Positions 7,985 to 37,965 of a stretch of 42,707 nt of DNA are shown here, in pieces. The number at the start of each line of letters is the position of its first letter. Within the stretch, counting starts at the first letter, position 1. The notes under the pieces were generated by a model. It was not told the origin of the DNA, searched no databases, and saw only the letters and a list, made by a program, of their open reading frames with translations. A program made the position numbers and the translations under genes. Source of the stretch: Jimgerdemannia flammicorona (lineage: Eukaryota); the NCBI GenBank assembly GCA_003990765.1, contig RBNJ01000086.1, positions 1-42,707 of the forward strand, given 5' to 3'.

Positions 7985-10133
<2,149 letters not shown>

Positions 10134-12003: not shown

Positions 12004-13272
12004 ATGCCTACTGCCTGCCAAACCTCAAGATCAAGGAACCACCAAGGTATCTCAGTCGAAGAAAGAATGTTCCAAGATATCAGAAGAGCCATGAGGACCC
12101 ACTCAAGAAGAACTCCTAGTATCAACCTGGGTACTACAGACCTCTATCACTTTATCCTCTACCACTATGAAATGGAAACAAGAATCACCATTGCTACCGA
12201 ATGCCTCTAAATGTGGCAGGAGTACAAAATAGGAAACCTCCTTGGCTGGGAGTTCCCACAGGCCAGCACTTAAGAGCTACACGATACCACTCCCATGGAC
12301 ATACATGAGATAAGAATGGCCAAGAAGATCCATCAGATCTTCAGGCATATATCATAGTCAATTCTAGTGCTCTCAAACAAGTCAAATCAATTTGAATTAA
12401 ATCAAATTGAGGGTTAAATGAGTCGAATCAAATTGGGGATTTTTCAATTCAAATCAATTTGAATTGAATCAAAAGTCAAATCAAATTGAGGGTCTAATTC
12501 AAACCCTAATTTTCAAAATGCAATAACTCAGCATAAACTCATCCAAATCTAACATACTTTAGCTTGTTAGAATTACATTAATACGGTGAATCTAACAAGC
12601 TAAAATATGTTAAATTTGGATGAGTTTTCATTGAGTTATTACATTTTGAAAATTAAGGTTCAAATCTAACTTCGAATCGAATTGGACCTTTGATTCGATT
12701 TGAATTGAATCAAATTGGACCCTTGATTCAATCAAATCGAATTGAGTTTGGGCCAAATTCGATTTGATTCAATTCATTGGGAGTACTAGTCAATCCCCAA
12801 CTTGGAGTATGTCAGAGTCTCAGATTTCAGAGACCTATCATCCTACCATATCAATGCACTAGAAGCCAGGGTGGCCACAGAAGCTCAGTCCACTATCACT
12901 CTCAACAGTAATGAAGTAGAAGACTTCTGACATCCTATCCTTTAGGACAACCTAGACCAATTCCTACAAGGATTGATCTCAGTATTTCAAGGCCCAAGTA
13001 TCTAGGTTAAATCTCTCCAAGATCCCACATTTGTCCCCTACTTTGTGGAAGAGAATCTCATAGACTGGAGAGCTCCAGATCTTGTTCCCAATTTCCCTAC
13101 CACCGAATGTGATGACATCATTGGCGATGACATCATCCCATATGACATCAAAGTACATGAAACACATGAAGTACACAAAACATGCAACCTACATGATGAA
13201 TTCACAGATCTCATCTCTTTTAGTGATGATGATGATGATGAAGCCTCCATAATCCTGAACTTTCTGCTCTAA
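12004..13272 (+). pseudogene. LTR-embedded accessory ORF, family 2, copy A (~278 codons after removing the MITE)
   Basis: Runs from MPTACQTSRSRNHQG to EASIILNFLL*. Matches 24743-23946. Has transition-derived stops and is split by the MITE at 12365-12788. Confidence 0.8.
12365..12788. mobile_element. Non-autonomous hAT-type MITE, copy 1
   Basis: Terminal inverted repeats TAGTGCTCTCAA..TTGGGAGTACTA. 8-bp TSD GTCAATTC/GTCAATCC. Dense GAATC/GATTC subterminal repeats and an internal hairpin at ~12500-12660. The site is empty in LTR copy B. Confidence 0.88.
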
Positions 13273-13312
13273 GTTCTTTGTTATACTGAATAATGCCAGC
13301 ACCAGTATTCTC

Positions 13313-16300
13313 TTTTTTTTTTTTTTTTTTTTTTATAGTCACTTGGACTTGTCCTTTATTACACTCATCTATCCTATATAAATACAATGAACCCACCCCC
13401 TATCCAATCTCCCTAGGGGGGCCCCTCCTCCCTACCTTTTCTCGATGAAATACTACTCTATTGAATACAATCCCCACTCTCCCACCACTTTGTTCGCATA
13501 TCCTTACTACCAAACTGTACTGCTGCCCTCCTAAAAGACCCCAACCTATCCACCATCCAGTCAACAGATCCCCCAACAGCTCCTCCCACCTTACAACCTT
13601 CTCCTGCAGGCTCATCTGCCACCCCTCCTTAAACACAAAAAGCCAATATCCTACCAGACCCACTCAAACTGCTAACACCCACCCGACAGTGAGCCAACTA
13701 TCACCCACCCCCCCCACCAGCCGAGATCTCAAGTCCTCTCAGCAATCCCCTTCACCTGCTGGCCTGCACTCCACACCCAGTCTATTCTCTATTTCAACCC
13801 TAAAGTCCCCCAAAACCTCACACTCTCCCAGCCAATGTTCCGACATCTGCACCAAACCCCCAGCTTGCTCTACATTGTAATACTCCTTACAGTTGAAATA
13901 GCCACCATCCACCAGATGCCTGGTGTGGAAATTCAGCATGACATTCCTCCGCAGCAATCACTACCACACTACCCAGAACTTGTGGGGAAGCCACCATCGC
14001 ACCTCAGCACTCCAAGACCATATCCCTGCCCAGTTCCACTCCTTGCCAATCCTGACTGCCTGCCAACCACTTGGCCAAAGATCCTGGCCAAGACCCTGCT
14101 GATACTCCACTCCATCCCCAATATCAAAAGTGACAAATGGAGCACCCCCCAGAAGCAGTCTATCCCATCACCACATACAAGGACCCCACAACACCTCCCC
14201 CTCATTGCCTTGCCAGCACAGACCAATTCTGTATGCTCCATTGACCACTCTCCACCAAAAGCCCTTAAATCGCAGCCACCGAATTTCATTGAGCCCTACC
14301 AAAGAGAGTAGATCTCCTGAGGACCCTTGGGGGGAGGTTCTCATCTTCCACACCTTCTACATCAGAAGTATCCAACTCTCTCCCTATAGTTCAGCTGCTC
14401 TCTTCAACCACCAGGCTCACAAGCAGTACAACCTCTTAGGAAAATCCATAAGGCCAAGACCTCTCCTGTCCACTGGTGTTGCAAGAGTATCCCAACTGAT
14501 CTGAGACCTCCTTCCTGCCCAAATCCAATCCCTAGCCACCTTTGTCAGCCTCTTCACCACCCATGCTGGGAAGTCTAGGTGGTATGCCACATACCATAGC
14601 TTGGGGAACCAGTATGTATTCAGAATTGACATCCGCCCTACTAGAGAGATATGGCAGCCTCTCCAACCTCGAAGAGCCTCCCCCCAAATAGCCACTCTAC
14701 TCACCCACCACACTTATGGCAAGACAGAACCATATACAGAGAGGAAGATACCCAGATACCATACTACCTTACCAGTAGGGACAATTGTTCCAATGATGTC
14801 CCCACTCACCAGTCCATTCCCTAGCACCATAGTCTCACACTTATGCCAGTTGAGCTTTGCCCCAGAGTGAACCTCATACCATTCCACCATCTCTTTAAGT
14901 GCCTTGACATCTGCTACAAACCCAAGGCCAACCACTATATCATTCACAAAGGCCCCCACCTTCCACACTATGCCATAGATAGAGCCCCACCACCTTCTGG
15001 CGAATCCTATCCATTAACAGTTCCAATGAGAGAGTATAAAGAATAGGGGATAAGGGGTCCCCCTGAGGAACCCCTCTTCTCAAGGTAAATGCCTGACCAT
15101 GGTGACCATTATACATCAGTGCTGCCTGACTGCCCTCAAGCAGATTCACTATAGAAGCCTGAAATCCAGGAGGAACACCAATACAATCCAACACCTTGCC
15201 CAGCCAAACCCACTGGACCTGGTCATAGGCCTTCTCCTGGTCCAAAAAGACCAACCTTCCATCCAGGCCACAAGCCTGGCCCCTTCAATAATACTATGCA
15301 CCCAAGCAGTCCTATCTCTTATAAGCCTGCCTCTAACAAAGTCCTGCTGCTTCTCCCCTAGCACCTGTTGGGCAACCTTCTACAGCCTTGCAACAACCAC
15401 CTTAGTTACCATCTTCCTGTCCATGTTCAAAAGCATGATCAGTTGCCAGTTCTTCCAGTCTTCTCTCCTCCCCTTGTCTTTGTACAATAAAGCCACCAGC
15501 CCGAGGTCCTGCTCTCCAACCCACTCACCGCTCTGAAGGATATGATCACAGAGAGCAGTCATCTCCCCCAGAATGCTGGAGACCTTGACCATCCTCTTCC
15601 AGAAGTCCCATGGTAGTCCATCCTCCCCTGGTGCTGTTCCAGTTTTAGTTACCACAAGGATACTCTGGACCTCCTCACTTCGCACTGGTAAGGCCAAGTC
15701 ATCCAGTTTAGCCACTTGTAGCTGCCTCCATTCCCCTAATGCATCTTCAATAGCTGCCTCATCAGCACCCCCTTTATCCTCACTCCACAAACCCTGCCAT
15801 CTCTCTTTCAAAACCTCTAGGATTTGTTGCATGCCATGTACCATGTCTCCATCAGCATCGAGGACCCCATCCCACTGATGTCTCACCCTCCTAGCACTGA
15901 GCAGATGGGATAAATATCTAGTAGGCCACTCACCCTCCTCAAGTCCCTGCCACTATAGCCTAGCAGCTATACCTCACATATGTACCTCCTCCTCTTCTCT
16001 CATCACCTGTTGCAGTTCCAATATCTCCAACTTAATCTGTGCTAACCTCCAATCCTCCACTCCATCAGAAGTAAGCAAATCTGCCCAATTCATTTGCAAT
16101 CTCCTCAGCCTGCTGGAGGCATACCTCATACACTTCCTTCTCTATCTCCCAGCTTCTCTCCCAGTCTCTCCCCAATAGACCCTTACAGCCTCTTTCAATC
16201 TCATCCACCAGATGCCCACTGACAAGCCCTCACACCTCCAGTGAGAAACTTTCACCTGAATGTCCTCTACCCATGAATCCCACAACCCCTTCTCAGCCAG

Positions 16301-17419
16301 CAGAGAGGAGTTGAGGTGCCAATGTCTGGGTCCATCTCCACTCTCCCAAACTGCCCCTGTCCCAACAGTCTCCAGTGATCAGACCATGGGCACCATTCCA
16401 CCTCCAATACCTTCCAGACATCAGACCCCCAGCATTCTGCCATCAGAATCCAGTTAATCCTTGTACCCAAGCCATTCACCCAATGTGTGTAGACCCTGGA
16501 GTTGCCCCATCATATTCTACCCATATCCCCTAAGGAGCTCAGCCTCTCCACCTCCTCCCATACATCCAGGCCTCCACTTTTCCCTCCTACACTCCTCCCA
16601 TCATCAGTGTGGTCCAGATGCTGATCCCAAACCATATTAAAGTCCCCCCCAATCACATCGACCCCTTCTGCCAAGAGAACACCCTCCTCCAGCAGCTCCT
16701 CAATCCATACAATCCTCTCACCCCTAACTGCAGGGCAGTAGCAAGAGCCAACCCTCACCAACTCCCACCCTGGCCACTGCCAATCTCCTCAGACCAAGTG
16801 GTCACCCCAGCTCCTGATTCCCTCTAAGTCACCTCTACCCTTCCTCACCAGAATCACCACTTTTCCAAACCAAGCAGTAGCCCCACTCCATTCCTTAGTC
16901 CACTTCACCCAATCATCCTCATCCTCATACCGAACATCCTGTAGTAAAAAGAGATCAGTCTCCAATCCCTTGAGCCAAGTAAAAATGTTCTTATGCTGTC
17001 CAGAACCCCTCAACCCATTCACATTCAAAGAGAAAATGTTAGTTGTACTGTTCATAAGGAATAATGTTAAAAAGTGATCCCATCCTCTATAAGTCCACAT
17101 TCTGCTCCTCCTGCACCAAGTCCAATTCACATTCAGCAGCTAGTTTTCTTTCCCCAGCTTCCTGTGCCTCCAATCCTCCCAGAAGTTCTACCATTGCCTC
17201 ATCTTCCCTCTCCTCAAATTCCTCTTGATACTCCAAACAGGCTTCCCTCCAGAGCTGCAAACCATGTCACTCAGCCCAGCAGTATGTTGCCTGCTCACCT
17301 GCAGCCACCACCAGCTCTGCCTTTCTCACCTCATTGACCTCATATCCCTCCTCCTTTAAGAGGATCACAAGAATCTCCCCCCTCAGCGCCTCCACCACTC
17401 TCTCACCATGCAGAATCCA
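13313..17419 (-). mobile_element. L1/Tx1-like LINE, 5'-truncated, with degenerate ORF2 (APE endonuclease + RT)
   Basis: 22-nt poly(A) tail (T run 13313-13334). 13-bp TSD CACCAGTATTCTC/CACTGGTATTCTC. ORF2 starts at 17055 with IFSLNVNGL..LFLLQD, followed by GGDFNMV, APGEDGLP, LDQEKAYD, RGVPQGDPLSP and AFVNDIVV. Many transition-derived stops. Confidence 0.93.
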
Positions 17420-17667
17420 CACTGGTATTCTCATGTAACACTGAATAATACCAGCACTGGCATTCTGAGGTGATGTGAAATTGTTCCAGCACTGGTAATC
17501 TGATGTGATACTGAATTATACCAGCATCCTTAACCTGTACAATCATCAGTACTGACTCTGGAACTTAGTAGTTTTAGTTATTGGAATTTATATTTAGCTT
17601 TATATCTTAGCAACTATTGAATTATATTTTATATAAATATCCCTCTTATTTCCTCTAAAATAAAGTC

Positions 17668-18090
17668 AGTTCCTCTCAGTACAATATACACACTTTCTTG
17701 TAAGCAATCTAAGAGATAATAAGACAGTTTAAAGATAAGAAGTTTGAGGACTATAAGACCTTAGGAAGACACTCCAATAAGAACTTGCTTATAACAAACT
17801 TGAGTTAGTCTAAGAGATACACCTTGAAGAGAATCTGATATATTTGAAGGACTCAATGCCCACTATATGACAATGTGTATAATATAGTTCCTCTCAGTGC
17901 AATACATACACTTCCTTGCAAGAAATCTAAGAGATAACAAGACAGTTTAAAGATAAGAAGTTTGAGGACTATAAGACCTTGGGAAGGTACTCCAATAAGA
18001 ACTTACTTATAACAAACTTGAGTTAGTCTAAGAGATATACCTTGAAGAGAATCTGGTATATTTGAAGAACTCAGTGACCACTATGTAATA
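17668..18090 (+). repeat. Tandem duplication of the terminal 205 bp of solo LTR A
   Basis: 17668-17872 and 17886-18090 both run from AGTTCCTCTCAGT to the LTR end, separated by 13 nt. Confidence 0.88.
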
Positions 18091-18099
18091 CTATATATA

Positions 18100-20093
18100 T
18101 ATTAATAATTTGTATTATAACAAGTGAACACTATAGTATAGCTAGATAATATATAAAAGAATATATAACATATAGTTACTCACATATACTATAATTTATT
18201 TAAATAATTAGATATTCTAAATTAGATATTAATTTCATCTTAACTAAAATACTCATTCTAACTAAAACACTTGTTCTAACTAGAATACTTATCTTAAGTA
18301 AAATATCTGTCTTATAGAGAATAAGTATGTTCTACTATATACATATTCTATAATTATCCAGATAGCAAGTAGATAGTAACCATACTTATATAAAATATTC
18401 TAGAGATTTAAGTAAATAAATTATAGTCCAAAAAGTTCAAAAGCAAAAGACAAGTCTGCCTAATATACTTTAAGAGATATACCTGTTAAGAGCTATTTAA
18501 TTCTAAAGAAAAAGAATTATAATACTTAGAAGAAATATCTACTTTAAAGCTATTATTCAGAAGATTGTAAGCTTTGTTTAATTCTACTCTAATCTACTTT
18601 CTGATATAAAGAGAAGTCTGCTAATTTAGTCTACTTACTAGATTAAGCTAAAAGAACTTAAATTGTCTGATTTTGGTCTATTTATCAGACAAAGTCAGAA
18701 GAATTAAAAAATCTGCTATATTATATCAAACCTATATATTCTAATTAGAAAATTGCTAAATATTATCTACATTATATAAATAAGAGTATTTGTATCTATT
18801 TTGAAAGAAAAACTATTAAATATTTTATAACTTTTTGACCAAATAATTGTGGGCTCAAGCTAATCTATATAGCTGTCTCAATCTTATAATTTATCTTTAT
18901 TATATCAGTATATTATATTTTGGAGCTCAACTGGGAGGATTTCTGAACTTTTTAGCTCATAAGAATCTAATAGTCAAACTAGATACATATGTATTATAGA
19001 AGAAATAACTAAATTTCACACTATCTCTAAGATAATAGTATCTGAAGAAAGACTATTACTATCTCACCACATAAGTGATAGAATAATATCAGTAGATAAG
19101 AAGATATATAGTATCTTTGACTAATTAAATAACCATACTTATCCAAGCTCTCTACCTTAGTATCAAAACAAACAAACCTATAAAAGACCTCTACTTTATA
19201 CTATTTAAAGACAAAACAGACTAAGTAAAATATTTATAAAATAAGTTAATACCAATTACTATACTAATAGATGAAATAATAATCAGAACTCAGACAATAC
19301 TCTCAATAATAATGAATACTATAAGATTGAAGATCTCTATATAACTATAGGCTCACAAGTAGAGAAAGTTATCACACATTTTATAGATATAGCTGCTCAA
19401 TAGTGGTGCAACTTTTTAGTATATCCTCTCACTTAGAAAATCTACATCAAAATTGATATATATAAAGAAAATAACAATCACCCTAACTATGAAGTCCACC
19501 TAGCTATCATGGGCCTAAAAGAGCTGATCATTTAATAGTTTTGCAGCTCTGTCTATATTGTCAAAGCCAGAACAAAGCTCAAAAACCTCTGATTCTATAA
19601 TAATAGAAAAAAAGACTTGGAAGTATTTGCAATAAGATTAAAAACTCTTCTAAATATTATAGAAGTAGAATATAGCCAATGAGAACAAACTATAAATATA
19701 ACCAGAGTAGTATACTTTGTTACTATCTCTAGATAATTATCAGAAAAGATCTAGGAGTAAGAATAACTCTACAATTGTCTATATGTATAAGTAATAATAC
19801 TTAAGACAAGCTATTATCAGAGCACATATTATCTTAGTAGCTCAAAGACTAAGAAATAATAGAAATAACAATAAAGGAGACAAGTAACATCAATTTAAAA
19901 AGAGATATGAATTTTAGAATAACTCCTCAAAATTATAAGAAGGATTTAAGAAATTGTCTAATAAGAAAATAGAGAAACTTATAAAGAAAAGAGTATATTT
20001 CTCTGCAAAAAGAGGAGATATATATCTTGCAAATATTCTGACAAGTAGACCAATATGAACAAAGGACCATTCTTCTTATATACTATTACTCTA
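18100..20093 (+). mobile_element. Highly decayed Gypsy remnant (LTR end, tRNA-Pro PBS, gag), probably continuing after 27394
   Basis: TATTATA-TTT-TGGAGCTCAACTGGGA at 18911-18936 mirrors CACCACA-TTT-TGGGGGCTCAACTGGGA of the intact Gypsy. Gag-like residue follows, with a decayed zinc-knuckle trace at ~19990-20045. The left boundary is uncertain. Confidence 0.55.
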
Positions 20094-20265
20094 TATTAGA
20101 AAGAGGGGTATTTTTATTGAGTTTATATAGGATATATATTTTATATATTGCTGATAGATAATGTAAAACTGATGAAATTATCAATTATGTGTTGATATAT
20201 TGAGTTGCCATCCCAACACTCTCACTCAATAAGATATGTATACAAAAAAGAATATAAAATATACT

Positions 20266-20266
<1 letters not shown>

Positions 20267-20332
<66 letters not shown>
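20267..20332 (+). repeat. 66-nt poly(A) run inside the Copia 3' untranslated region
   Basis: Uninterrupted A run. Confidence 0.9.
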
Positions 20333-20970: not shown

Positions 20971-21209
20971 TAGTACTTCCAAATGAGTCAAATCAATTTG
21001 AATCAAATCAAATTGAGAGTTAAATGAGTTGAATCAAATTGGGGATTTTTCAATTTGAATCAATTCGAATCGAATCAAAAGTCAAATTGAATTTTGAATT
21101 GAATTGGACCTTTGATTCAATTTAAATTAAATTGAATTGGACCCTTGATTCGATCAAATCATTTGAGTTTGGGTCAAATTTGATTCAATTCGATTCATTG
21201 GGAGCACTA
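20971..21209. mobile_element. hAT-type MITE, copy 2 (internally deleted relative of copy 1)
   Basis: TAGTACTTCCAA..TTGGGAGCACTA termini. 8-bp TSD GTATTATA/GTATCATA. Same arms as 12365-12788 but without the central hairpin. Confidence 0.88.
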
Positions 21210-23440
21210 GTATCATATGTATCAGATAGCTGAATACTATTGCTCTTTCTATTACTCTTGCTTAATTCAATATTACCATCTAACATAAGTATATAGTATG
21301 CTGATTTCTCTAAGTATCAGAAAATTTTCTTAATAGTACTTTAATGTGAATTATCATAGTAGGAGGAGTACTGTGCCATCTTATTCATAGTATATAATAT
21401 ATTAGGTCTCATTTCTAGCATAAGATACATGAGAGAGCTAACTGCTTACCAATAGGAAATGTTGTTGGTACTATTCTTATTATCATCATCCTCAGATATA
21501 GTGTTTGGCTTCTTTAACTTTATAGAAGTATTCATAAGAGTGCTGATAGGCTTGCAATTACTTATATTAAAGTATTTGAGAATGGTTTTGATATAAGTTT
21601 CTTGTGAGAGGTATATAGTATATACATTCTTATCATATAATAGATATCTCCAAAAGGAAGAATGTGTCACCTGTATCAGTTATCTTGAATTCTTAGTATA
21701 GAGTTTCCTTTACTCCATTAAGCCTGTTATTACTGACTATAATAATGATATCATTAACCTATATGCTAATAAATACTATGCTATTGTCATAATATTAGAT
21801 ATATATATATATATAATTGTCTGCTTTACAATACTTAAACCTATTGTCAAGGAGATATTTATCAATCCTTTTATTCCATAGATATACCACTTGCTTAATA
21901 TCATATAATTCTTTATATAGTCTATATACAAGCTTACCATTCTGGCTGTCATATAGTTCATATCCTTATAGTTGACAAATATATAGTTTGGTATCTACAT
22001 CCTGTTTAGGAAGGCTGTTTTAATGTCTATTTGGTGGATTTCTAGATCATATAGTATGTCAATCACAAGGAGTATTCTAAGTGAAGTAAGCTTAAATACT
22101 GGCAAAAAGGTTTCATCATAATCTATACTATAATCTTATAAGTAACTCTTAGTAATGAAATGAGCTTTATACCACTCTACATTTCCTTTGACATTATGTT
22201 TTATTCTATATATCCATCTTGATCCAATCACTTGATGATTTGGTAGAAGAAGTACTAGATCTCATATACTATTCTCAATATATGAATCATATTCCTCATC
22301 CATAGCTTGTTTTCATTTCTTATTATCAGAATTGGTTTTGGCTTCATTATATGTACTTGGCTCACTAGAAGATATTACAATATATACATATTTGTATACT
22401 TTGATATAGCTCATATAGTTCTTTTGTTATTGCTATCTAGAGCTTGCTAGTATATCCCAATAGTTTTCTAAATTAGAATGAGTTTCTCAGCAAATATTAG
22501 AGTACTTTTGCTTTTATTTACCCTTTGTAGAGATTTTTATTGTTGGAGAATTTGCCATCATCATCTTTGATCTCTATTATCCTTGGCTCAGATATTTCTG
22601 GCTCAGATATATATAGTAGTTGATAATAATTTTGATTGACCACTGGAGAGGTAGATGACAGTTGTGCTGATTACTGCATTTATATTGGCTGAGATATAGA
22701 TGTAGAGGTTCTGATTAGTACTTCTATACAGATTTTTAAGTCTTTTTCTCTGAACTATATATTATGAGAGATAACTATATATCTTTTACATAGATCTCAT
22801 AGTCAGTATACTTTGCCAGAATATCCAAGAAATATGTGCTTGCTCATCTTAGGTTTGAATTTATCCTGGAAAACATTGCTTTTATCAAGGATATATATAT
22901 ATTGAATCCAAATATATATATATAATATATCTGGCTTAGATCTACTCCATAATTCTTTAAGGGTAAGATAATCATCTCTGAATTACTTATTATTGCCAGA
23001 ATTCTTACTTAGTGATTGAGATATATACTGGTTGTGAATGTATACCATAGTATTTATAACTTTAGCCCAATAAGTATATGACAATCTGGTGGTATTAATT
23101 ATCATATATACTATTTCAATAGCTGTATAGTTAAATTGCTCAACTATACTATTCTGCTAAGGTATATAGAGAGCCATCATTGATAGGTTATACTATGTTT
23201 TGTCAGAAACTTCTTGAATATATAGTTGATATATTTATGTCTATTATCTAATTATATAGTACATATTCTACATTCTATCTTATTCTTAGTGATCACTTTA
23301 AATTTTTTGAATCTATCCAAGGCTTTATTCTTTACTGATAGAAGGTATATATATACTTTATATATATAATTATTGATGAATGTAAGAAAATATCTCTTGC
23401 CAGAATACAATGGTATATATATCAACTTATATATATCTAT

Positions 23441-24965
23441 TGTCACATAGTGATCACTAAGTTCTTCAAATACACCAGATTCTCTTCAAGGTATATCTCT
23501 TAGACTAACTCAAGTTTATTATAAGCAAGTTCTTATTGGAGTACCTTCCCAAGGTCTTATAGTCCTCAAACTTCTTATCTTTAAACTGTCTTATTATCTC
23601 TTAGATTGCTTGTAAGGAAGTATATGTATTGTACTGAGAGAAACTGACTTTATTTCAGAGGAAATAAGAGGGGTATTTATACAAAATATAATTCAATGAT
23701 TGCTAAGATACATATAAAGCTAAATATAAATTCCAATAACTAAAATAAAATGCCAGGACAGGAAAAACTATTAAGTTCCAGGGTTGGCACTGATGGTTGT
23801 ATAGGTTCAGGATGCTGATATAATTTAGTATTACATCAGAATACTGGTACTGGTATTATTCAGTGTTATATCAAATGCTAGTACTGGAACAATTTTGTAT
23901 CACCTCAGAATGCTAGTGCTGGCATTATTCAGTGTAACAAGGAACTTAGAGCAGAAAGTTCAGGACCATGGGGACTTTATCCTTGTTATCATTGAAGGAG
24001 ATAAGATCTATGAATATTTCATCAAGATCACATAGGTCACACAGGATGATATCATCACCAATGATATCATCACATTTGGCAGCAGTGGGAACAAGGAGAT
24101 CTGGAGCTCTCCAGTCTATGAGGTTCTCTTTCACAAAATAGGAGACAAATGTGGGGTCTTGGGGAGGTCTAACCTGGATACTTGGGCCTTGAAATACTGA
24201 GATCAACCCTTACAGGAATTGGTCTGGATTGTCCTGGAGGATAGGATGCCAGAAGTCTTCTACTTCATCACTATTGAGAGTGATAGTGGACTGGGCTTCT
24301 GTAGCCACCCTGGCTTCTAGTACATTGATATGGTGGGATGACAGATCTCTGAAATCTGAGACTCTAATATACTCCAAGTTGGGGATTGACCATAGTGCAT
24401 GTCTGAAGATCTGACAGATCTTCTTAGCTGTCCTTGCCTCATATATATCCATGAGAGTGGCATCTTGTAGCTCTTGAGGGCTGGCCTGTGGGAACTCCTG
24501 GCAGAGAAGATTTCTTATTTCATACTCCTGCCATATTTGGAGATATTTGGTAGCAATGGTGATTCTTGTTTCCATTTTATAGCAGTAGAGGATATAATGA
24601 TAAGAGTTACCAGTACCCAGGTTAACATTAAGAGTTCTTCTTGAGTGGGTCCTCATAGCTCTTCTGATGTCTTGAAACATTCTTTCTTTGACTGAGGTGC
24701 CTTGGTAATTCCTTGACCTTGAGATTTGGCAGACAGCAGGCATTTCATTTATAGTAAGTCTTTGAGCTATTTTGGGATTGGTGGGTCTTATTGGTTGCTG
24801 CTACTGTAGTTCCTTAATCCTTCTTTTATATTCCTCAAGATACTTATACTGTGGTCATCATTACTCATCTCATATACTGTATGATCTTCTTGTGCTCCGA
24901 TTTGGTGGCTTACAAGGAAAGGCTGTCTTCTGTGCTGATGTCATCATTCTGGAGTCACTATTACA
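23441..24965 (-). mobile_element. Solo LTR, family 2, copy B (1525 bp), inserted in the Copia integrase
   Basis: TG..CA termini with short inverted ends (TGTCACATAGTGA / TCACTATTACA). 4-bp TSD CTAT at 23437-23440 and 24966-24969. The Copia integrase reading (RILNLIYI|DIYK) resumes across it. Confidence 0.88.
23946..24743 (-). pseudogene. LTR-embedded accessory ORF, family 2, copy B (265 codons, one internal TAA)
   Basis: ORFs 24743-24210 and 24206-23946 are in the same frame. The TAA at 24212-24210 is CAA in copy A. The C-terminus is acidic. Confidence 0.82.
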
Positions 24966-25221
24966 CTATATATATAAGGTTGAGAATCCTGGATATATGT
25001 TTTAATCATTCTTTGAATGGTCACTGGGATACCTTATTTACTATGCAATCCTCACAGAAACTGTCATATAGATATACTGCTGGTAATTCTCTGACAGATC
25101 TACTCCTTATCATCCATTTAAGGCTTATCTTGCTAATATATTCTAAGTATTGATACTACATAGTAGATATATCAGGCATAGTTATTATATATGCAGAGGC
25201 TTTCATACTACTTGGCATGCT

Positions 25222-25556
25222 TAGTACTCCCAAAATAAATATTTGAATCAATTCAAAGTAGATATATATGGTATTCAGATTGAATTGATTTGATTCAATT
25301 CAAATATTATTTTGATTTCCAAATTAGAACACAAATGTTTTCCTCAATACCTCTATGAGTCTTCATCCGATTTTGATGAAACTAGTATCATTGGAAAGCT
25401 CTCTATAATGGCTTTCCAATAACACCAAGGTCACTAAAATCAGATAAAGACTCATAGAGTTATTGCAGAAAATGTTTGTGTTCTAATTTGGAAATCAAAA
25501 CAATATTCAAATCAAATTGAATCAATTTGATTTGAATATTTATTTTGGAAGCACTA
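25222..25556. mobile_element. hAT-type MITE, related second family
   Basis: TIR TAGTACTCCCAAAATAAATATT / AATATTTATTTTGGAAGCACTA. 8-bp TSD GGCATGCT/GGTGTACT, differing only by transitions. Internal imperfect palindrome at ~25360-25450. Confidence 0.82.
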
Positions 25557-28520
25557 GGTGTACTATTTATCATATAAAGATTGCCACATTTCAAGGCTAT
25601 CATTAACCTCTTGTTATCATGTGAATTATATACTGCTGTGCTCTTTGAATATATATGTATCTCTTTATTACTATGGGTCATCATTTTGCCTATAGAGAAG
25701 AGGTTCTTTTCTATCTCTAGAGTATATAGTACATCTGTAAGAGTAGTGGCAGGCTTGATGACATTTTTATAGAGATATATACTGATATTTCTCTTTTCTT
25801 GAGTATAGATGATATTGTTATCTCCCAACTTGATGAGTATAGAGTGTTCAAATAGTTGATATATAGAGAACTATTTCCTATATAGTGTCATATATTGTAT
25901 AGCTCCAGAATATATTAACTAGACATTGTTGTCATCAGCTATATTGATATATTTGGTGGATATATAGTTGGCAGTTTTTCCATCTATACTGCTGGTGGCA
26001 CTGACATTATCACTACTTTTCATCAGTCCAAAAGTATTTCACTGATTAGTACTTATTGATAATAAGTTAGTGGATTTGAAACTAGATTCTGTACTAGCAG
26101 AACTAACAGAACTGGTGTTGTCAGAATTGGCAGTAAATTTGATGGGACTTTTAGGTCCAAAATTACTATCCTTGCCAGGCTTCATAGATGTAGAAGAACT
26201 GATGGCTTGTGCAAAAAATAGATAACCACTTTTATTAGTTTTAGTAGTATTTGTATTGCTACATTTTCTTCAATAGTTTCTACCACTCTTACATTGCCAA
26301 TGCTGGTTTCTTCCATACTTATTTTTACTTTCTCAGTAATAGTATTGATATTTTCTATATCTATACTTGCTACAGTATTCACAGTAGCTGTCATACTTAG
26401 TTAATTAGCTGTTATATTATTGAGTTTGGGTTTGAGTTCATTGGCTTTATTGACTATACCTTTTACCTTATTTGGTACTATACCTATAGAATATATAGAA
26501 TGCCCTTTTGTTATTATTGTCTTCAGCACAATTTCTTTAGTATATTTCCTCATTTATAAGGCTTATTATTACATAGGCATAGTTTATAAGAGTACCACTC
26601 TCATATATAGCTATGATAACAACATTATATGCATCCAGAAGACTCCTTGTGAGTACTATAATCTTATCTTTATTGTCAATACAATCTATAGATATGTTGA
26701 GAAAATTCACTTAATTTACCATATTATTAATATTATTGATATATTTATAGATACTCTTCTTAAGCTTTATTTAAAAATTGAACAGCTGAGATTTTAGGTG
26801 AAATCTATTCAATATAGATACTTATATATGATGATTACATAGGGCTTCTCATACTTTGTTAACTGTATCTATATGCATTATGAGCTTTGTTTGTAAGTTT
26901 GATAATATAAATGTAATCTCATATAATACTTAGTGATCATTTGTAGGATCATAGTCTTCAATCTACACTTGTGGCTTTATATACTCTACTAAGCTATATT
27001 TGTCAAGAAGATTCATTATATGGAATATCCAGATGGTATAATCTTTCTCATTGAAGATCAGAATAGATCTCTTGGTTATATTTATACTTATAATAGAGAC
27101 TGCTCTCATTGCCAGAATACTCATAGTTGATATATTCATATCACTTGTATTGCTAGATTGACTGTCTGCTATTTCTAGTATATATTATATAGTATATATT
27201 TATAAAGTATATATATATATATATATATATTTGCTATATCTGCTTAGTACTAGTGGAACTCATAACCTTTGTTAAAAAGAGGGGCATTTTTATTAAGTTT
27301 ACATAGGACACATATTTCATATATTACTGATAGATAATATAAGACCAATGATATCACTAATCATATATTGATATATTGGGTTACCATCCCAATACTATAA
27401 TAGGAGATAATCTCAAAAAAATCTCTGAAAAAATCAAGATCAAGAAATTCCACATTACTACAAAAATTCCAGATAAAGTACATGAATCTAATGCTACTAT
27501 TACTTTCAGGATTAGATCATATATATATATCAAATCTGTATTTATAATAAGTCCAAAATTTTTTCTCAAAGTACTAATTTATCTCACCAATATTACAGCT
27601 GATCAAAGTATATAATATGTATTTAATATACTATATCTAAAGAATACTAGAGGTGTGTTTATAATTATATAATACATATTAAATAAAAATAACACACTGT
27701 TCACAAGTCTGAAATCTGGAATAAGTAGTATATATTGTGGTGTGCAGTTTATATCCCTAGTTCTCTTCAAGAATGGCTCAATGTACCACTTGGTGAAGCG
27801 CGCAAAGGATGTGAGTGCATTCGCGACGGTTACAGGTCGATAGTCACGTGATCGGGTTATTCGAAACATGCGATATTTGATATTAGCGGTCATTCGATTG
27901 TTCAATGGCTCAATATTTAGTGGAAAAGGGCATTCCTGGTGGCGATTAACTTGGCAGTGAACTTGAATTTATACAGCAATGACAGGCTTGGCTTTAAGCG
28001 GTTCGTGGCATAGTAGGTTGGGAAAACAGAGGTTGATGACTCGCTCGTCTGTCTTGACTTGTTAACTTGAAAGGTTCTGAGCAGTCATTTATGTAGGCTG
28101 GCAGATCGGTCTTTGGCGGTCTAGTATCCTTTGGCTGGGTATCCTTGGGTTTCCGGGTCTTGAATCTCAAATGGCGGTTGAATGCATGGTCTGAATGGCA
28201 GTCTGAATGTGCGGCAGTCATGGTCTTGAATTCCTTAGCTGGGTCTTGGGTCTCGAATAGTGGTCAAATGGCAGTCCGAATGCATGGCAGTTGTGGTCTT
28301 GAATCCTTGACTGGGTCTCGGGTCTCGAATGGCAGTCGAATGGCAGCAGTCAGGTAATGTTTTCTTTCCGTGGCAAGAGAAAATTCTTTAACTTAAACTT
28401 CTGAGCAATCCATTGCTCTAGGTTGTTATCTTGTTCTCAGAATTTATCTGGTCTCTTGGAGGCAGTGGTTTCTTTGTAAACTAGAACTGACTGAGGTTTA
28501 TTCACTCTAAGAATATGGGT

Positions 28521-28528
28521 TATTTATA
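28521..28528 (-). promoter_or_regulatory. Candidate main LTR TATA box (TATAAATA); equivalent at 38751-38758
   Basis: Minus-strand GTATAAATAACCC lies downstream of the LTR ORF. The family-2 LTR has a matching TATAAATA at the analogous position (17632). Confidence 0.55.
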
Positions 28529-28887
28529 CAAGTTTGCTAGCTATGGATATGGCTAAGGTATACTACATTGTGGTGAACATTCGCTATACTATTGGCTTAT
28601 ACGATGCAAGGTGCAGGCTATTGTTTACTACAGATTAAGTTGTAGGGGATAGCAATGCTGGATTCGGATGAGCAGACATGAATGCTGATTATTGCCAGAA
28701 ATGGTTGTGGAGGGTGGCAATGCTGAAAATGGGTGTTGCTGACTTGCTGACAAATGTGGGATCACTGAATTGAGATAGGGCGAGTACCAGTGCCGGATTC
28801 AGTTGTTGGGGGTGGTATCACTGGAAATGGATGTTACTGACTTGCTGACAAACAATGGCTAACTGGACTGAGGAAGCAGACATTGGA

Positions 28888-29871
28888 TCACTGAATGGTA
28901 AAGTACCCTTCATCAGTGAACCAATCATCTTGCTGGGTTGTGACCTCTTCATTCTGTTCTTCAAAGAGTGGGAGCACCGGCCAGGAGGTGAGGGGGTAGA
29001 AAAGTGGCCAGTCATCTTCAACAACATTCTCTAACCCTTGAACAGCTTGAATGTGGACAGAGGACTGGTAGACTCTCTGTTGCTCCTCTTCTTCTTCTGA
29101 AGACTCGTCAGTTTCAGTGTCAGAGGGGGTTTCTTCAGGGGTAGGGTCTTGGGGTTCTTGGACTTCCTCTTCAAAGACAGAGACCTCTTGGGCTTCTTCT
29201 TGATTCAGTTCCCAAATGATGAGATGTGAATTGTGGCTGGCAGGGTGGTGGGTAGTTGGGGTAGCTCTAACGGGTGCTTCTATGGTAATGGGCGGTCCTT
29301 CAAATATCTCCATAAGACTCATTAGGTGACCTTGATGGTTGTCTCGGAGTGGGGTGGTGTGGAAACCTGGCTAAGTAAGTTCAGTTTGTTGGCTTCCTAC
29401 AGCAACGCTGTTGCTGCCAATAGAGTTGGCTACTTCAGATTCTATCCAGTCAGCATCTTTGGTTGAAAGGCAGGAGAGGCTGCCAGCCATTACTCCTTGC
29501 AAGTATGCTATGGCCCAGGGAATATGGCGGAAGATTTGGTGGACATGGAGGGCTCTCTTGATTAGCTGGCTGGTGGTTAACAATTCGGTAATGAGGTCTT
29601 CCCGGTCATCTTCTTGAGTCTCATTGCGAAGGTGGTGTCTGATTTCGTAGTCATGCCAGAGGGTCATTCGTTTGGTAGTATCTTTGAGCTGTTGGGTCAT
29701 TATATACCGGTAGTTGATGAAGTGTCCAAGATCCTCAGTATAGAAGTTCAAGTGTTCGGAAGTATCTGGGTGCCAGATGGCCTTCTTGATAGCTTCAAAG
29801 ATCAGGGTCTTTGGGTCAGGCAAAGGGGTAGAGTGGCGGGAGGTCTGGTTGGATCAGCGAATGGGAGGCAT
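28888..29871 (-). pseudogene. LTR-embedded accessory ORF, family 1, 3' LTR copy (327 aa when repaired)
   Basis: ATG at 29871 (MPPIR*SNQ..PDPK). Single frame to the stop at 28888. Internal stops near 29855 and at 29371-29373 are CGA and CAG in the other LTR. Confidence 0.85.
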
Positions 29872-30085
29872 TGTATGGTAGATACTTGGTTCTTTGGTGC
29901 CGATCCCTGAGGCAGAGTATGGTTCCTTAAATAACGGTCTTCATTTTGGCTTGGATCATCTTGTCTTCTTTTGGCAAAATCACTTGACGGATTGGGCTGG
30001 TCACTAGTTATCACGCCATAATGTCATCTGATCTTGTGGTCGCAGAATACTCCAAATTTGGACAGGGTCGATTGTAGACGTCACA

Positions 30086-30096
30086 TCTGCCCCTTG
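30086..30096 (-). other. Polypurine tract
   Basis: Minus-strand AAGGGGCAGA immediately before the TGTGA start of the 3' LTR. Confidence 0.75.
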
Positions 30097-30409
30097 CAAA
30101 ATTAGAGCCATCCTCAGCAGTGAGGGTTACACAGAGTTGGGTGGTCTTAACTCCAGGGACGAGCAGAATGTCAGCACATTTGTAAGGACTGCCCATCCTT
30201 GTCTAGAGCAAGGGCTTCCATAGTCGCAGCTGGGGGTTTGAACCTATCAGAATAGTATTTCTTGTAATCTGAGGCAATTTCTTAGTAACAATATCTGTCA
30301 TGTGGATGGGCTTGAGTCTGGTTCCAACATTGTTAGCTTTCTTGAGTTCCGAGTGAAATGTCTGTCATATCTCCAATGGAGATGACACAGACAGAGTGAA
30401 CAGGATTGT

Positions 30410-33130
30410 TCAAATGCATTTTACTTCTCTTGAGTAGTAGAGTCTTATGCGGTTGTGGTGTATCTTGGTCTTGAGTATAACTCCATCCAAGGTCTTAAGT
30501 TGATAAGTATGGTTTGAGAATACTTGGTGTATGAGATAGGGGTCTTCCCATTTTGGTTTAAGCTTGGCACTCCAATTTCCTTCTATGATGGTACGGTACA
30601 CCAGAACCTTTTGTTCAATGAGCAGGGGTTCAAGGTCGGCTTTGCGGTTGTAGTATCTCTTTTGTCGTTCTTGTGTCTTGACAATAAATCCTCGTGCCTG
30701 CTGGCATACATTGTGTAACCGGGTGATCTCTTCTGTGACTCACTTTGACAGATCTAGCTGGACTGATTCAGTAGGATCTTGTGCTTCTTGGCCATATACC
30801 AAATAGAAGGGGGTCTGTTGGGTAGCAGTTGCCTTAGAGGTACGGATGCTAAACAGAATTGCTGGTAGATAGATATCCCAGTTTAGTTGATCTCTGGTTC
30901 TACTGAGACCTCACTTGATGGTCTGGTTCATTCATTCAGTGAGTCCATTTGCCTGTGGGTGGTAGGCTGTTGTTGGTCGTAGCTTGATCTTGAAGTTGCT
31001 CGCAAAGGTCTTCATGGCTTGGTTGATGAATTCTCGGTCTTGATCTATAATGATTTCCTTGGGCACACCATGGCGGCTGAAAATTTCATCATACAGGATC
31101 CCAATAATTGTCTGGGCATTGGCAGTCTCAATGGCAAAAGCTTCCGGCCATTTTGTCAGGTGGTCTTTGATAGTGAGGATGTAGTGTCTTCCTCAGCTGG
31201 TTACTGGTAGGGGTCCAATAATGTCTATTCCCAGTCTTTGAAAGGCTCCAGCTGGTGCTGCAATTGGTATTAATGGTGCTCTGTCGGTAGGCTTTTGTCG
31301 GTATCTTTGGCAGGTATCACATTGTTGAATGTGTGTTGAAATTTGTTTTCTCATCTTGGGTCACCAGTATTGCTTCTTGATTCTTGCGATTGTGGTGCCA
31401 ATTCCTCAGTGTGCATTTTGGTCATGATTTGTTGTCAGGATCTTCAATATTTCTTCTTCTCTTGGAACTCGGGTATACTGCTCTCTATCTACTCTCTAAA
31501 GTTTGCCATCGCCTTCTTGGAATTTCTTGAAATTCCTTTGGATAAATAACTTGTGGGCTGGTTGGATTCCTTTCTTGAAGCTTCTATGGTGCAGACTCCA
31601 GGTGAGGGCGAGGCACAATTCTTGGTTCATTTGGGTGAGCGGGAAGCAGCCTTCTCTTGTGGGGGCTCCTTCCCTTCTTGTTGGTTTTGCAGGATTCTTG
31701 ACAGGATATCAACATTGGAATTCTTAGTACCTTTCTTGTAGACAATAGTGAACTGATATTCTTGCAGAGACATGATCCATCTAGCGAAGATTCCTGAGGG
31801 CTCCGGCTTATTGAATAACTATTGTAGAGCTTGATGGTCAGTAATGAGAGCGAATCTCTTTCCCAAGAGATAGTGTCAGAAGTGGTCCACAGCCCAAACT
31901 ACTGCTAGGCATTCCAACTTAGTGGCTCCATAGTTTGCTTGTGTTTCATTTGTGGTCTTGCTAGCATATTTGATAACATGCTCCCTCTTCTGGTCATCTT
32001 GCTGAGACAGAATTGATCCAAGTCCTAAGGCTGAGGCATCAGTTGCCAGGATGAATGGTTTGCCAAAGTCTGGTCACACCAGGACAGGGGCTTCAGTAAG
32101 GGCCTTCTTGAGTAGGTTGAATGACTTTTGTTGTTCTTCTTTTCAGTAGAATGGTTGGTCCTTCTTGGAGATATCTCGAAGAGGTGCTGCCTTATCTGAA
32201 AACCTTGGGATGAATTGTCAATAGTAGGATTCCAGCATAAGGAAAGATAGGGTCTCCTTTGCTGAGGTTGGGGTTGGGTAGTTCTTGACTTTCTCCACCT
32301 TGCAGGGGTTGGTATGTGTTCCTTGAGCTGAGACAACATATCTCAGATATTTGACTTAATGTTTTCTGAAGAAGCACTTCTTGGCATTGAGTCTGAGTCC
32401 TGAATTTCGGATGGTATTGAATACTTCACGGAGGTCTTGCAAATGCTGCTTGAATGTCTCAGAGTAGATGATTACATCATCTATGTACACTAGTACATTT
32501 CTTCCAATGAGGTCCCAGTAGACATAGTTCATCATTCATTGGAATGAGGTGGGTGCATTGCAGAGTCCAAAGGGTATTCATAGGTATTCATACTGTCCTC
32601 ATCTGGTGATGAAGGCTATCTTGCAGATATCTTCTTTGGCAATGGGTATTACTTGGAATCCTTGGAACTGGTCAGTAGTGGTCATGTATTTGGCTTTTCC
32701 AAGGACATTGATAAGGTCATCAATTCTTAGCAGTGGGTAGGCATCTTCTGTGGTGACTTTGTTGAGTTTTCTGAAATCCACGACTAATCTCCATTCTCCT
32801 TTCTTTGGTACTATGATTGCTAGTGAAGCCCAGGGGCTTGATGATGGTCTGATGACTCTATTTCATAGCATTTCATCTATGTATTGTTGTTCGAATTCAA
32901 TCAGATGATGTGGTGTTCAGTAGGGTCATTGTCGGATTGGTCTTGCATCTCCAGTATGTATAGAGTGTTCTCCGTATTGATATGGTGGGAAGTTATCATA
33001 TGTGGTGGTAAATATATCTTTATACTCCTCTATCAACTCTTGTATCTGTTATTGCTGGTCCTTGGTTAGAGTTGTCTCAATGTTGACGGCTTTGATTACT
33101 GAATTTGCTGAGTCTTCCTCTCTGGTACCA
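30410..33130 (-). pseudogene. pol: Gypsy pol: reverse transcriptase, RNase H, integrase
   Basis: SSPWAS, VDFRKLNKVT..DAYPL.RIDD, PFGLCNAP, VYIDDVII (~32480), ATDAS, ECLAVVWAV, ITDHQAL, an HHCC region (~31420-31310), IDIIGPLP, YHPQANGLTE and a C-terminal PKWEDPY. Multiple stops. Confidence 0.93.
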
Positions 33131-33530
33131 TCAGTCTCACTGGAGAGGACTTGCCATTTCTCAAGAATTCAAAGACTTCTTCCTCATAGGTATCTATCAG
33201 TGGTTCGAAATATCCCATTGTTGTTCCCTTGGGGATAGTTATTACTTCAAAGCCCAAGTTTCTGATAGAGATGTGGATTGGTGACATCTGGTCATGAATT
33301 TGTTCTTCAGCCAGGAGGATGTAGTATTCCTTTTGAAGCTCCAGTGATGGTGCAAATATTAAGTTGTTTGCTTCTACTGGTAGGTGCACATCTAGGCCTT
33401 TTTGCTAGTAGGGCTGCAGGAGGATGTCTTCTCTTGCTCAGATTGGGCGATAGATATGGGGTCTCATTTGTCGGAATTGAGCAACTATTGCTAAATGAAC
33501 CTCAATAGGTGGTGTCCATAGATTTCTATT

Positions 33531-33941
33531 GGTGCTTCCAAAGCCTCCTTGTCCTCTGTTGGTATCTTCTAGTTGGTCTACCTCTTAGATAGTCAGCTGT
33601 GATGTCTTGATAAACAGGATTTGGCAGATGGCTTCCATAGAACTGAAGAATTGGCTGGTTCTACTAGAATTGCAGATAATGGCCTTCAAGGGACCTCAGT
33701 AGTCCTGATCAATGACTCCTCCTTCTACTGTGACTCCTTTGGTTGCCAATGAGGATCTTGAGGCCAATTGTCTATAATGCCCAGGTGGTATAGTGAATGC
33801 GATCTGTAGGTCGAAAGTCCTGGTACTTCTGGGTCGGATTCTTGCTTGGTAGGGGAGGCAGAGGTCATAACCAACTGATCCTTCTGTTTGTGCAAGAGGT
33901 GGCTGTGCCCAGGGTGAAAGCAGCTTGATCTGGATAATTGG
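33531..33941 (-). pseudogene. dut: dUTPase domain within the Gypsy polyprotein
   Basis: All five motifs in one frame: GSVGYDL, ASRSSLA, GGVIDQDY*G, AICQIL and RGQGGFGST. The stops are TGA and TAA, consistent with CGA and CAA. Confidence 0.93.
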
Positions 33942-35093
33942 TTAAGCTTTGAGAAATGGTGCTTCAGCTGTTGCCATTGTAGGTGAGAAGTCCATGCGCT
34001 CCGGTTTGAAGAAAGGCCAGTGAGCTCCTGTCTTTGAGTTTCTTGTGTAATTGAATCCAGTCTTTCCTAGAGGGTCCAGAGCTTCTATAAGAATGAAGGC
34101 AAGATTGATATCTTCTTTTCCTTGATGAGGGCAGCAGTACCAGCAAATGATGGCAAGAACTTCCAATGGTAGGTCCCAGATAGAGGTCTTGCTCTTGAAC
34201 TTACAATCTCCTTCATGGTTGATTTCTTTGCACTTCTGATAGGCCCAGCGAATTCGAGGTTCTTGCAGGGTGGGATCCTTTCTCTTGACTTGGCTCTTGT
34301 AGACATCTTCGCTGAGGTGAACATCTCGATGTTCATACCAGTAGCAGGTAAAGGTTTTTCCACAATCACAATGTCCCTTCTTGACAAAGTCTTCATTTTG
34401 CTGTCTGACCTCCTTACTGGTAGGGAATCTCTTCCGATACTTATCATAGGTGGGCTGTGTGATCTAGAGGGCCCGAGTGATAGTGTAAGAGCTGTTGCTT
34501 TCTCCTTTGATGGTAAGAGACTCGAATGTTTGGCAGGCAAGGATCTTCTGTCCTTCCTTATAGGTCTTCTTAAAGGTCTTCGGGGTTGGAGGTTGTATTT
34601 GGCTGTGGGATGGTGCTTTCTTCAATTCGTCCTTATCATCAATTTCTGGCATTGGAACCTTCTTGAGATCCAGGATTCGGCAATTGCTGCAATTATCTCT
34701 TGGTGAGTGAAAGCTGATGAAATGTTCACATATGCCTTGATGAAAGGCTCATATGATCTGATTTTCTACCAGTGGTGGTGGTGGTTGAGCAGAAGGTCCT
34801 GTAAACTCAAGTGCTGCCCTTGTATTAATGGCTCTATCAATGCTTTCTTCTATATCTTCAACACTAATAACTCCAATGAAAGAGTCTTCTTGTTTGCTTT
34901 CTTGGTCCCTTGGGGCATCGAAATCACTTCCTAGTTCTTGTAGGAAATTGGCCTCGCTTTCATCCTCAGTAGTAGTGGGGGTGTCGCCATGTCCTTGCCA
35001 TTCTGTTTCTGAGGCTTGATTCATCTTTTTGGATAATCCTTTTGAGTCAATGGGCACCTTGTGCTTCTGTCTATGAATGGAGAAGACCAGGAG

Positions 35094-35400
35094 TTATTTC
35101 TTGATATCTATATTGGCTCCAACTTGGCTTAACCAGTCAGTTCCCAGAATCAGGTCATAGGAGGTTGCGGGGGTCATGACAGCTTTGGGTACATTGAGGC
35201 AGGCCTTTCCAACTTGAATGGGGATGTCTCTGACAAGTCCAAGGGGTGTGGAAGCTGATCCGTCAGCCATGATAACTCTTGCTTTGGTTCCTTCATCTAT
35301 TCCCCATCCAATTTGCTCCAATATCCTTTGGGTGATGATGCATACTGCTGCTCCAGTATCGATGAGAATTCTGGTATTTTTACCATGCACTTTTCCATTG
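35094..35400 (-). pseudogene. Gypsy aspartic protease
   Basis: ILIDTGAAVCII..MADGS..PLG..YDLILGTDWL. Confidence 0.9.
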
Positions 35401-37895: not shown

Positions 37896-37945
37896 TGTAG
37901 ATAGCTGGGTTCTTGAGCCAAATGGTCAAGTCTTTTAAAAAACTT

Positions 37946-37962: not shown

Positions 37963-37965
37963 AAA

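Follow-up and report, generated by a model that had tools for sequence, protein, structure and literature searches.

Long terminal repeats (LTRs) are usually viewed as control regions that encode nothing, and those left behind as solo LTRs are seen as dead promoters. Foamy viruses have an internal promoter besides the LTR promoter for their tas/bet genes, and their activator has an acidic C-terminal part. Mouse mammary tumor virus (MMTV), a betaretrovirus, carries the sag gene as a complete gene inside its LTR, within U3 and upstream of the LTR promoter. Mtv-6 is reported to be a provirus that consists of an LTR only and still expresses sag. The sag gene is treated as the ‘LTR ORF’ (open reading frame) in the accessible portion of PMC2118998. 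In fungi, Ty3/gypsy elements that bear a dUTPase are known from Postia, Phanerochaete and Tuber, as described in the available part of PMC2864245. Here we analyze a 42,707-nucleotide stretch of Jimgerdemannia flammicorona DNA (contig RBNJ01000086.1, positions 1 to 42,707), hereafter ‘the window’, in which two LTR families each carry a related reading frame. Our focus is the 1525-bp stretch at 23441-24965 (minus strand), termed family-2 copy B. We assign a probability of about 0.68 to the reading that this stretch represents a solo LTR from a Ty3/gypsy lineage allied to the element at 27736-40315, and that it carries an accessory gene but is now a dead relic.

The element at 27736-40315 (minus strand; 12,580 bp, all frames broken) defines family 1 and serves as the reference for the comparison. 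Its two LTRs, the 5′ copy at 37966-40315 and the 3′ copy at 27736-30085, emerge from self-comparison as direct 2350-bp repeats that are 92% identical with zero indels. A TGG stretch resembling a primer-binding site (PBS; 37948-37965) follows the 5′ LTR, and a polypurine tract (PPT; 30086-30097) precedes the 3′ LTR. Pfam matches were obtained in six of the 72 frames scanned, five of which lie within this element, while the sixth is a copia-type fragment described further below. The five domains, all on the minus strand, are a gag zinc knuckle (zf-CCHC) near 36100, an aspartic protease near 35300, a dUTPase near 33800, a reverse transcriptase (RT) near 32700 and an integrase near 31000. Family 1 is proven to be a Ty3/gypsy LTR element by its paired LTRs, its PBS and PPT, and the order of gag, protease, RT and integrase. 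It resembles the dUTPase-bearing fungal elements in having gag, protease, dUTPase, RT and integrase, with the dUTPase between protease and RT, as far as those elements are described in the accessible part of PMC2864245. The sequences flanking the family-1 element are ATAT and GTAT.

Copy B has the form of a clean solo LTR with its gene retained. The stretch has TG...CA ends (it starts with TGTAAT and ends with GTGACA) and an imperfect terminal inverted repeat of ~13 nucleotides, and it is bracketed by a CTAT target-site duplication at 23437-23440 and 24966-24969. Neither a PBS nor a PPT adjoins it, and the flanks are (TA)n. Its gene occupies 23946-24743 on the minus strand, with the ATG at 24743, and 264 of its 265 codons are sense codons. 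The exception is codon 178, a premature TAA (24210-24212) where the second family-2 copy, copy A, has CAA, such that the ATG-to-stop ORF of copy B encodes only 177 amino acids. In both family-2 copies an out-of-frame ATG lies five nucleotides 5′ of the gene ATG (24743-24748 and 12000-12005) and opens a short overlapping frame, which could possibly act as a brake on translation. The corresponding family-1 genes are also on the minus strand. The one in the 5′ LTR (40101-39118; 327 codons) is interrupted at codons 33 and 68, and the one in the 3′ LTR (29871-28888) has its stops at codons 6 and 167.

An earlier note, made from the sequence alone, had proposed that both families share the layout TG - TATA1 - ORF - TATA2 - CA, in which one TATA-like box precedes and another follows the reading frame. 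All coordinates of this layout were confirmed. Counting from the start of the LTR, family 1 carries TATTTAA at 153, the ORF at 215-1197 and TATAAATA (TATA2) at 1558 (window position 28528), and copy B carries the ORF at 223-1020 and TATA2 at 1285. The family-2 TATAAAA that the note had placed ~85 nucleotides before the ATG, and had considered to be conserved in copy B, is found there at 24824-24830 (minus strand), or 87 nucleotides upstream of the ATG by our measurement, and it is also kept in copy A at 11917. The family-1 TATTTAA, said to lie ~55 nucleotides before the ATG, is located at 29927-29933 on the minus strand, with the ATG at 29871.

Evidence that these frames represent a gene comes from comparison of the two families. 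Their LTR proteins align by BLASTP with an E value of 2e-18 and 28% identity over 181 amino acids, and their Smith-Waterman score of 182 far exceeds both the 35 ± 5 obtained from 300 shuffles and the scores of 39-41 given by the other two frames. A codon alignment of family 1 with family 2 yields nucleotide identities of 0.45, 0.57 and 0.33 at codon positions 1, 2 and 3, a pattern that, as judged from sequence comparison, is the signature of long-term protein constraint. By blastn, no DNA similarity was detected between the two LTR families, and tblastn reveals exactly four copies of the gene in the window: two in the family-1 LTRs and two in family 2. It could be argued that the ORFs are merely chance frames on a T-poor strand, since the sense strand of family 1 contains only 22% T and random frames are lengthened by such a composition. 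However, we regard the likelihood of this as negligible given the cross-family protein homology with its codon-position signature, and given the existence of intact homologues in four subfamilies.

These homologues were recovered from protein sequence collections. A word-indexed protein search gave seven matches among 2006 candidates, and a profile search run exhaustively over 1.84 billion representatives returned nine matches at E ≤ 1e-3, six of which reach E ≤ 1e-10. One match, P0018 (E 4.8e-4), is a low-complexity repeat protein and was dropped as spurious. Intact ORFs among the cluster members encode 324, 325 and 331 amino acids in family-1-like proteins and 271 and 247 amino acids in family-2-like proteins, and intact ORFs of 259 and 342 amino acids represent two further subfamilies, making four in all. 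Fused forms are absent among the profile-search matches, the longest of which is 342 amino acids. The intact relatives come from JGI or ENA metagenome sets, mostly from contigs of ~1 kb, and the copy B protein is 66% identical to one of them, the 271-amino-acid P0008. Among the relatives, P0021 and P0013 are found on longer contigs of 19.4 and 4.8 kb. Cross-family homology and intact relatives together indicate that the frames belong to an orphan family of real genes once under selection, and both LTR families carry the same kind of coding gene.

A profile built from a six-sequence family-2 alignment was also run against nucleotide collections. Among metagenome contigs it gave a single locus, L001, which was rejected as a chance match because the identity is 30% over 81 amino acids, there is no LTR-like self-repeat and the surrounding frames are not retroelement-like. 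The same profile gave no relatives among 65 pattern matches in genome contigs and none among 210 pattern matches in viral contigs. Among sequencing runs, one soil-metagenome DNA run shared a fraction of 0.07 of the sequence words, and no RNA run was recovered.

The encoded proteins share a graded distribution of charge. Across 11 sequences, net charge ranges from 0 to +9 in the N-terminal part and from -6 to -11 in a core of ~120 residues that is predicted to be helical. Ten of the sequences have a full-length tail, with a charge of -9 to -31, and the truncated P0012 retains a 23-residue tail with a charge of -2. The overall content of D plus E in the 11 sequences is 13-27%. Recurrent acidic-hydrophobic motifs are found in the tails, such as DLISFED and VLNFL. 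The C-termini of P0005 and P0019 carry acidic residues followed by a terminal WxxL, and the tails of P0008 and P0025 contain FEDI or FEDL, all of which may resemble autophagy-receptor or activator motifs. An activator-like or adaptor-like role for the acidic tail may be imagined from these features.

The most robust control signal in both families lies downstream of the gene. The pattern TATAAA-N15-35-AATAAA occurs exactly once per LTR, 3′ of the ORF (LTR positions 1558 and 1285), where the actual spacer is 26 or 27 nucleotides, and this core is rarely matched in whole-LTR dinucleotide shuffles (P values of 0.0045 and 0.0135). In copy B the TATA2 block, TGTATAAATACCCC, is at 23670-23683 and the AATAAA, which lies 27 nucleotides past the TATA2 start, is at 23649-23654. 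The equivalent blocks of family 1 are found at 38747-38760 (AATAAA 38727-38732) in the 5′ LTR and at 28517-28530 (AATAAA 28497-28502) in the 3′ LTR, with all of these signals on the minus strand, and copy A carries TATAAATA at 17632. When the portions of the two LTR families that follow the ORF are compared, the highest-scoring local DNA alignment falls on the TATA2 block, with 14 of 15 positions identical. Between the ORF and TATA2 of copy B are two tandem units of ~52 nucleotides with a spacing of 69 nucleotides (23815-23935, minus strand), in a position that resembles that of an enhancer, and family 1 carries tandem units of 82 nucleotides at the matching place. TATA2 is probably the LTR core promoter and AATAAA the poly(A) signal. 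A TATA2-AATAAA core with tandem repeats upstream would place the border between U3 and R just after TATA2, and the gene would therefore reside in U3.

A different function for the TATA2 block can be envisioned, in which it forms the first component of a bipartite poly(A) signal of the yeast type, with a UA-rich element followed by AAUAAA. In such a case TATA1 would be the sole LTR promoter, and the gene would be located in a very long R and be represented at both ends of the element RNA. A TGTATA-like element positioned 26-27 nucleotides before AATAAA fits the fungal signal, as its consensus is generally given, and the arrangement is conserved and non-random. However, this proposal demands an R region of more than 1 kb and read-through of the signal in the 5′ LTR. 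Moreover, the tandem repeats directly upstream of TATA2 resemble U3 enhancers, and an extra piece of LTR in copy A begins 36 nucleotides after TATA2, which is about where R-U5 would begin. We therefore consider that there is only a slim likelihood that TATA2 acts in RNA processing rather than as a promoter.

Returning to the assignment of copy B as a gene-bearing solo LTR of a Ty3/gypsy lineage, several results weigh against it. The U3 location is inferred from the positions of TATA and AATAAA only. Non-coding similarity between the LTR families falls within the range of shuffled sequences (z 1.1-1.6), where the TATA2-block match taken as a bare score has a z of 1.4-1.6 and the 5′ regions a z of 1.1. 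Since this similarity is non-significant, the status of family 2 as an LTR rests on its layout and on the shared gene, and no full-length family-2 element was seen in the 42,707 nucleotides. Regarding the protein, no Pfam family matched any LTR ORF (E ≤ 0.01), a sequence profile search of the PDB yielded zero matches at E ≤ 1, and the best feature score in the ESM Atlas was 0.83, which lies within the range for shuffled proteins, with a best TM-score of 0.33. The AlphaFold2 model is poor (mean predicted local distance difference test score 51.6) and mostly helical, and a Foldseek comparison of it with the PDB gave nothing at E ≤ 0.001, the top match having an E value of 1.2. The intact metagenome ORFs are gene-caller predictions. 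Lastly, the family-1 LTR pair is less diverged in the ORF (6.2%) than in its flanks (7.9% and 9.6%), which could hint at late constraint, although CpG content explains the difference equally well.

The non-significant similarity to family 1, and the fact that no paired copy is seen around gag-pol, would also suit a proposal in which family 2 is not an LTR family but a mobile element of a different kind, such as a non-autonomous DNA transposon, that shares a captured gene with the family-1 LTRs. Ginger elements have TGT...ACA ends and 4-bp duplications. The imperfect terminal inverted repeat of ~13 nucleotides in copy B, with its 4-bp duplication, is in keeping with an element of this kind. However, the parts of family 2 follow the same order as in the proven LTR, namely a 5′ end, the gene, tandem repeats, the TATAAA-AATAAA core and a 3′ end of 200-800 nucleotides. 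Its (TA)n target and NTAT duplication are also the same as those of family 1. In addition, copy A possesses two LTR 3′ ends in direct order within one duplication pair. A non-LTR origin of family 2 is, in our view, very unlikely.

Copy A is a composite that extends from 11762 to 18090 on the plus strand, is 79-93% identical to copy B and has a 3′ CA that is mutated to TA. It includes a family-2 LTR (11762-17872, plus strand) that is interrupted by nested insertions. The gene survives as two pieces on the plus strand (12004-12362 and 12789-13272), with five in-frame stops over 261 aligned codons. These pieces are separated by an insertion resembling a miniature inverted-repeat transposable element (MITE; 12363-12788) that has inverted ends of CTAGTRCTC and an internal palindrome. 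A partial relative of this insertion is present at 20971-21211, which is 8.6 kb distant. Farther along is a long interspersed nuclear element (LINE; 13312-17422, minus strand) with a match to RVT_1 (E 1.8e-12) and a weak match to Exo_endo_phos (E 0.0026), a 25-nucleotide poly(A) tail, seen as poly(T) at 13312-13336, and an ~11-bp target duplication. The composition step seen at 12-18 kb in the window is due to the strong GC skew of this LINE.

Past the interrupted LTR, and separated from it by a 13-nucleotide gap, is a second copy of the last ~205 nucleotides of the family-2 LTR (17886-18090, plus strand), which is 92% identical to 17668-17872. This piece starts 36 nucleotides past TATA2 and four nucleotides past AATAAA, and it is R-U5-like, albeit in a single case. 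One pair of CTAT duplications (11758-11761 and 18091-18094) encloses the whole composite, in which both LTR 3′ ends are in direct orientation. This is most simply explained if copy A was originally a two-LTR element that lost its interior and most of its second LTR, although tandem duplication is an alternative source of the extra piece. The partial second end is the only hint of paired family-2 LTRs. The earlier note had described copies A and B as each having its own 4-bp target-site duplication, which is correct (CTAT for both), and as lacking internal retroelement sequence, which holds for copy B but not for copy A, given its LINE, its MITE-like insertion and its extra LTR end.

All four copies of the gene in the window are interrupted by stops. 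Over 213 codons, the comparison of copy A with copy B gives 32, 21 and 36 differences at codon positions 1, 2 and 3, of which 83 are transitions and six are transversions, and this even spread and the preponderance (~90%) of transitions imply neutral decay. Copy B departs from the consensus at 13 of the 129 residues that are invariant in the metagenome relatives, compared to 4-7% in leave-one-out controls, and nearly all of these departures can be explained by transitions of the C-to-T or G-to-A type. A similar bias is evident in the family-1 LTR pair, where 186 of the 189 differing sites are transitions. If C-to-T changes are assumed, 64% of the available CpG, 25% of CpA, 7% of CpC and 1% of CpT sites have been altered. 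This pattern in an early-diverging fungus appears to be like that of repeat-induced point mutation (RIP) or to be driven by cytosine methylation, and a RIP-like signature means that LTR divergence overstates the age of the family-1 element. The Nei-Gojobori (NG86) dN/dS value of 0.415 for the family-1 LTR pair was rejected as a sign of selection because the 186 transitions among 189 changes lower the neutral expectation and because both copies carry stops. With four of four copies broken and with copies A and B decaying neutrally, we consider copy B to be a relic rather than a working cassette. There is no sign of solo copies being retained by selection after their formation.

The state of these copies also bears on the central proposal of the earlier note, which was that solo LTRs act as self-contained gene cassettes. 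For the copies present here, this claim fails in that neither solo-type copy has an intact ORF, as is evident from the TAA at codon 178 of copy B and from copy A, which has two insertions along with its five stops. The portion of the proposal that a solo LTR leaves a promoter and a gene behind holds for the gene, since a real one is retained in copy B, whereas TATA1 as its promoter is within what chance would produce. A loose TATA motif 30-120 nucleotides upstream of the ATG is found in 5.5% of dinucleotide shuffles of family 1 and in 14% of those of copy B (P values of 0.055 and 0.14), and TATA1 cannot be aligned between the families, making this box at best a weak candidate. Likewise, both of the ‘two’ TATA-like boxes are present, but they were selected from four loose motifs in family 1 (LTR positions 153, 380, 1558 and 2113) and from five in copy B (136, 213, 385, 519 and 1285).

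Nevertheless, one can consider whether an intact solo LTR would constitute an autonomous unit, in which transcription starts at TATA1, the ORF is translated and the transcript ends at the LTR’s own AATAAA, such that recombination scatters trans-acting genes. The signals needed for this are present in the correct order in both families, the ATGs of both families are preceded by an A at position -3, and copy B as a solo copy has kept 264 of 265 sense codons. There is also a precedent in the 3′-LTR ORF, which is expressed by endogenous MMTV proviruses according to the accessible portion of PMC2118998. However, TATA1 does not rise above chance (0.055 and 0.14) and is unalignable between families, the out-of-frame ATG five nucleotides upstream of the gene ATG is an added impediment in family 2, and both solo-type copies are dead and decaying neutrally. 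We therefore view the autonomous unit as possible but unlikely.

Our preferred explanation remains that copy B is a dead, gene-bearing solo LTR. Both LTR families carry one gene, most likely in U3 and upstream of the TATAAA-AATAAA core, for an orphan protein of ~265-330 residues. In most relatives the N-terminal end of this protein has a net positive charge, the core is predicted to be helical, and the tail is strongly acidic and contains short hydrophobic motifs. Selection held the gene while the LTR families diverged past DNA recognition, and it is intact in environmental relatives. It behaves like a retroelement accessory gene that is sited like sag in the MMTV LTR, and the window copies have all been killed by C-to-T and G-to-A hypermutation. 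Intact copies probably use the LTR’s own poly(A) signal, and the gene may be expressed either via the 3′ portion of element RNA or through weak initiation farther upstream. Because the acidic tail resembles that of an activator, one might guess that the gene encodes a regulator that acts on the element in trans.

If this guess is extended, the LTR might form a two-promoter circuit, in which a weak start at TATA1 makes an LTR-encoded trans-acting regulator that acts on the tandem repeats and TATA2 core of its own family, or on RNA. Intact solo LTRs would then supply the regulator in trans, re-awakening or policing related elements genome-wide. Although such a circuit would be a fungal retrotransposon counterpart of the regulatory genes of retroviruses, we consider it to be quite unlikely.

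The remainder of this eukaryotic window consists of AT-rich spacers (25-30% GC) packed with mobile elements. A fragment with a copia-type Pol beta-barrel domain (25460-25870, minus strand; Pfam E 3.9e-8) adjoins copy B but is separate from it because there is no PPT and because the CTAT duplication lies in between. A third LTR fragment (1-680, plus strand) matches the 3′ part of the family-1 LTR with 67-84% identity. It is truncated by the start of the window and has the terminus ...CACCACA followed by ATAT (681-684), and its many retained CpGs indicate that it is less mutated than family 1. All LTR insertions reside in DNA rich in (TA)n and have a 4-bp NTAT duplication, which is CTAT in two cases and ATAT/GTAT in one, as judged from the target-site regions at 23430-23440, 24966-24980, 11750-11761, 18091-18105, 27725-27735, 40316-40325 and 681-684. 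These shared (TA)n sites and NTAT duplications suggest an integrase with a preference for TA-repeat targets.

A carboxylesterase (type B) gene at 7985-10214 (minus strand), which is split by introns into at least four exon-like frames, is apparently the sole ordinary host gene clearly visible in the window. A weak FAD-halogenase-like frame is located at 3327-3932, and an unbroken run of ~75 A nucleotides at 20258-20332, within an AT-rich spacer, is possibly the tail of a retroposed sequence.

If several fungal gypsy families carry a selected gene in their LTRs, both the view of LTRs as non-coding and the view of solo LTRs as dead promoters would have to change. If the reading proposed here is true, fungal elements have an accessory gene like those of complex retroviruses, with two copies per insertion, and solo LTRs could outlive the element as carriers of the gene. 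Such genes would go unseen wherever LTRs are masked during annotation, and gene callers would place their products among the orphan ‘hypothetical proteins’, as is the case in the metagenome sets.

The comparison with foamy-virus tas/bet extends to a 3′-end accessory gene that reaches U3, a possible second promoter and an acidic C-terminal part. It is a likeness by general description only, and the whole gene lies within the LTR in the case reported here. Our literature search (including PMC10787394, PMC12037069, PMC5408684 and PMC2864245) revealed no LTR-borne gene of this kind described for fungi in the portions of these sources that are accessible. The dUTPase-bearing elements are likewise presented in the available part of PMC2864245 with no gene inside the LTR, and an ‘add. 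ORF’ with no assigned function is named in one of its figure legends.

The closest parallel is to MMTV sag. The sag-type arrangement is found in both families, with the ORF wholly within the LTR and 5′ of TATA2, the putative promoter. As with sag, the gene is present twice per element, is kept by LTR-only remnants and is an accessory rather than a replication gene. In contrast to sag, there is no sequence relation (no Pfam match at E ≤ 0.01, in a collection that includes a sag model), the host element is a fungal Ty3/gypsy retrotransposon rather than a retrovirus, and the product is an acidic protein with no similarity to the sag membrane glycoprotein. By analogy, the arrangement described here appears to work like the MMTV LTR ORF, although its product is not a member of the superantigen family.

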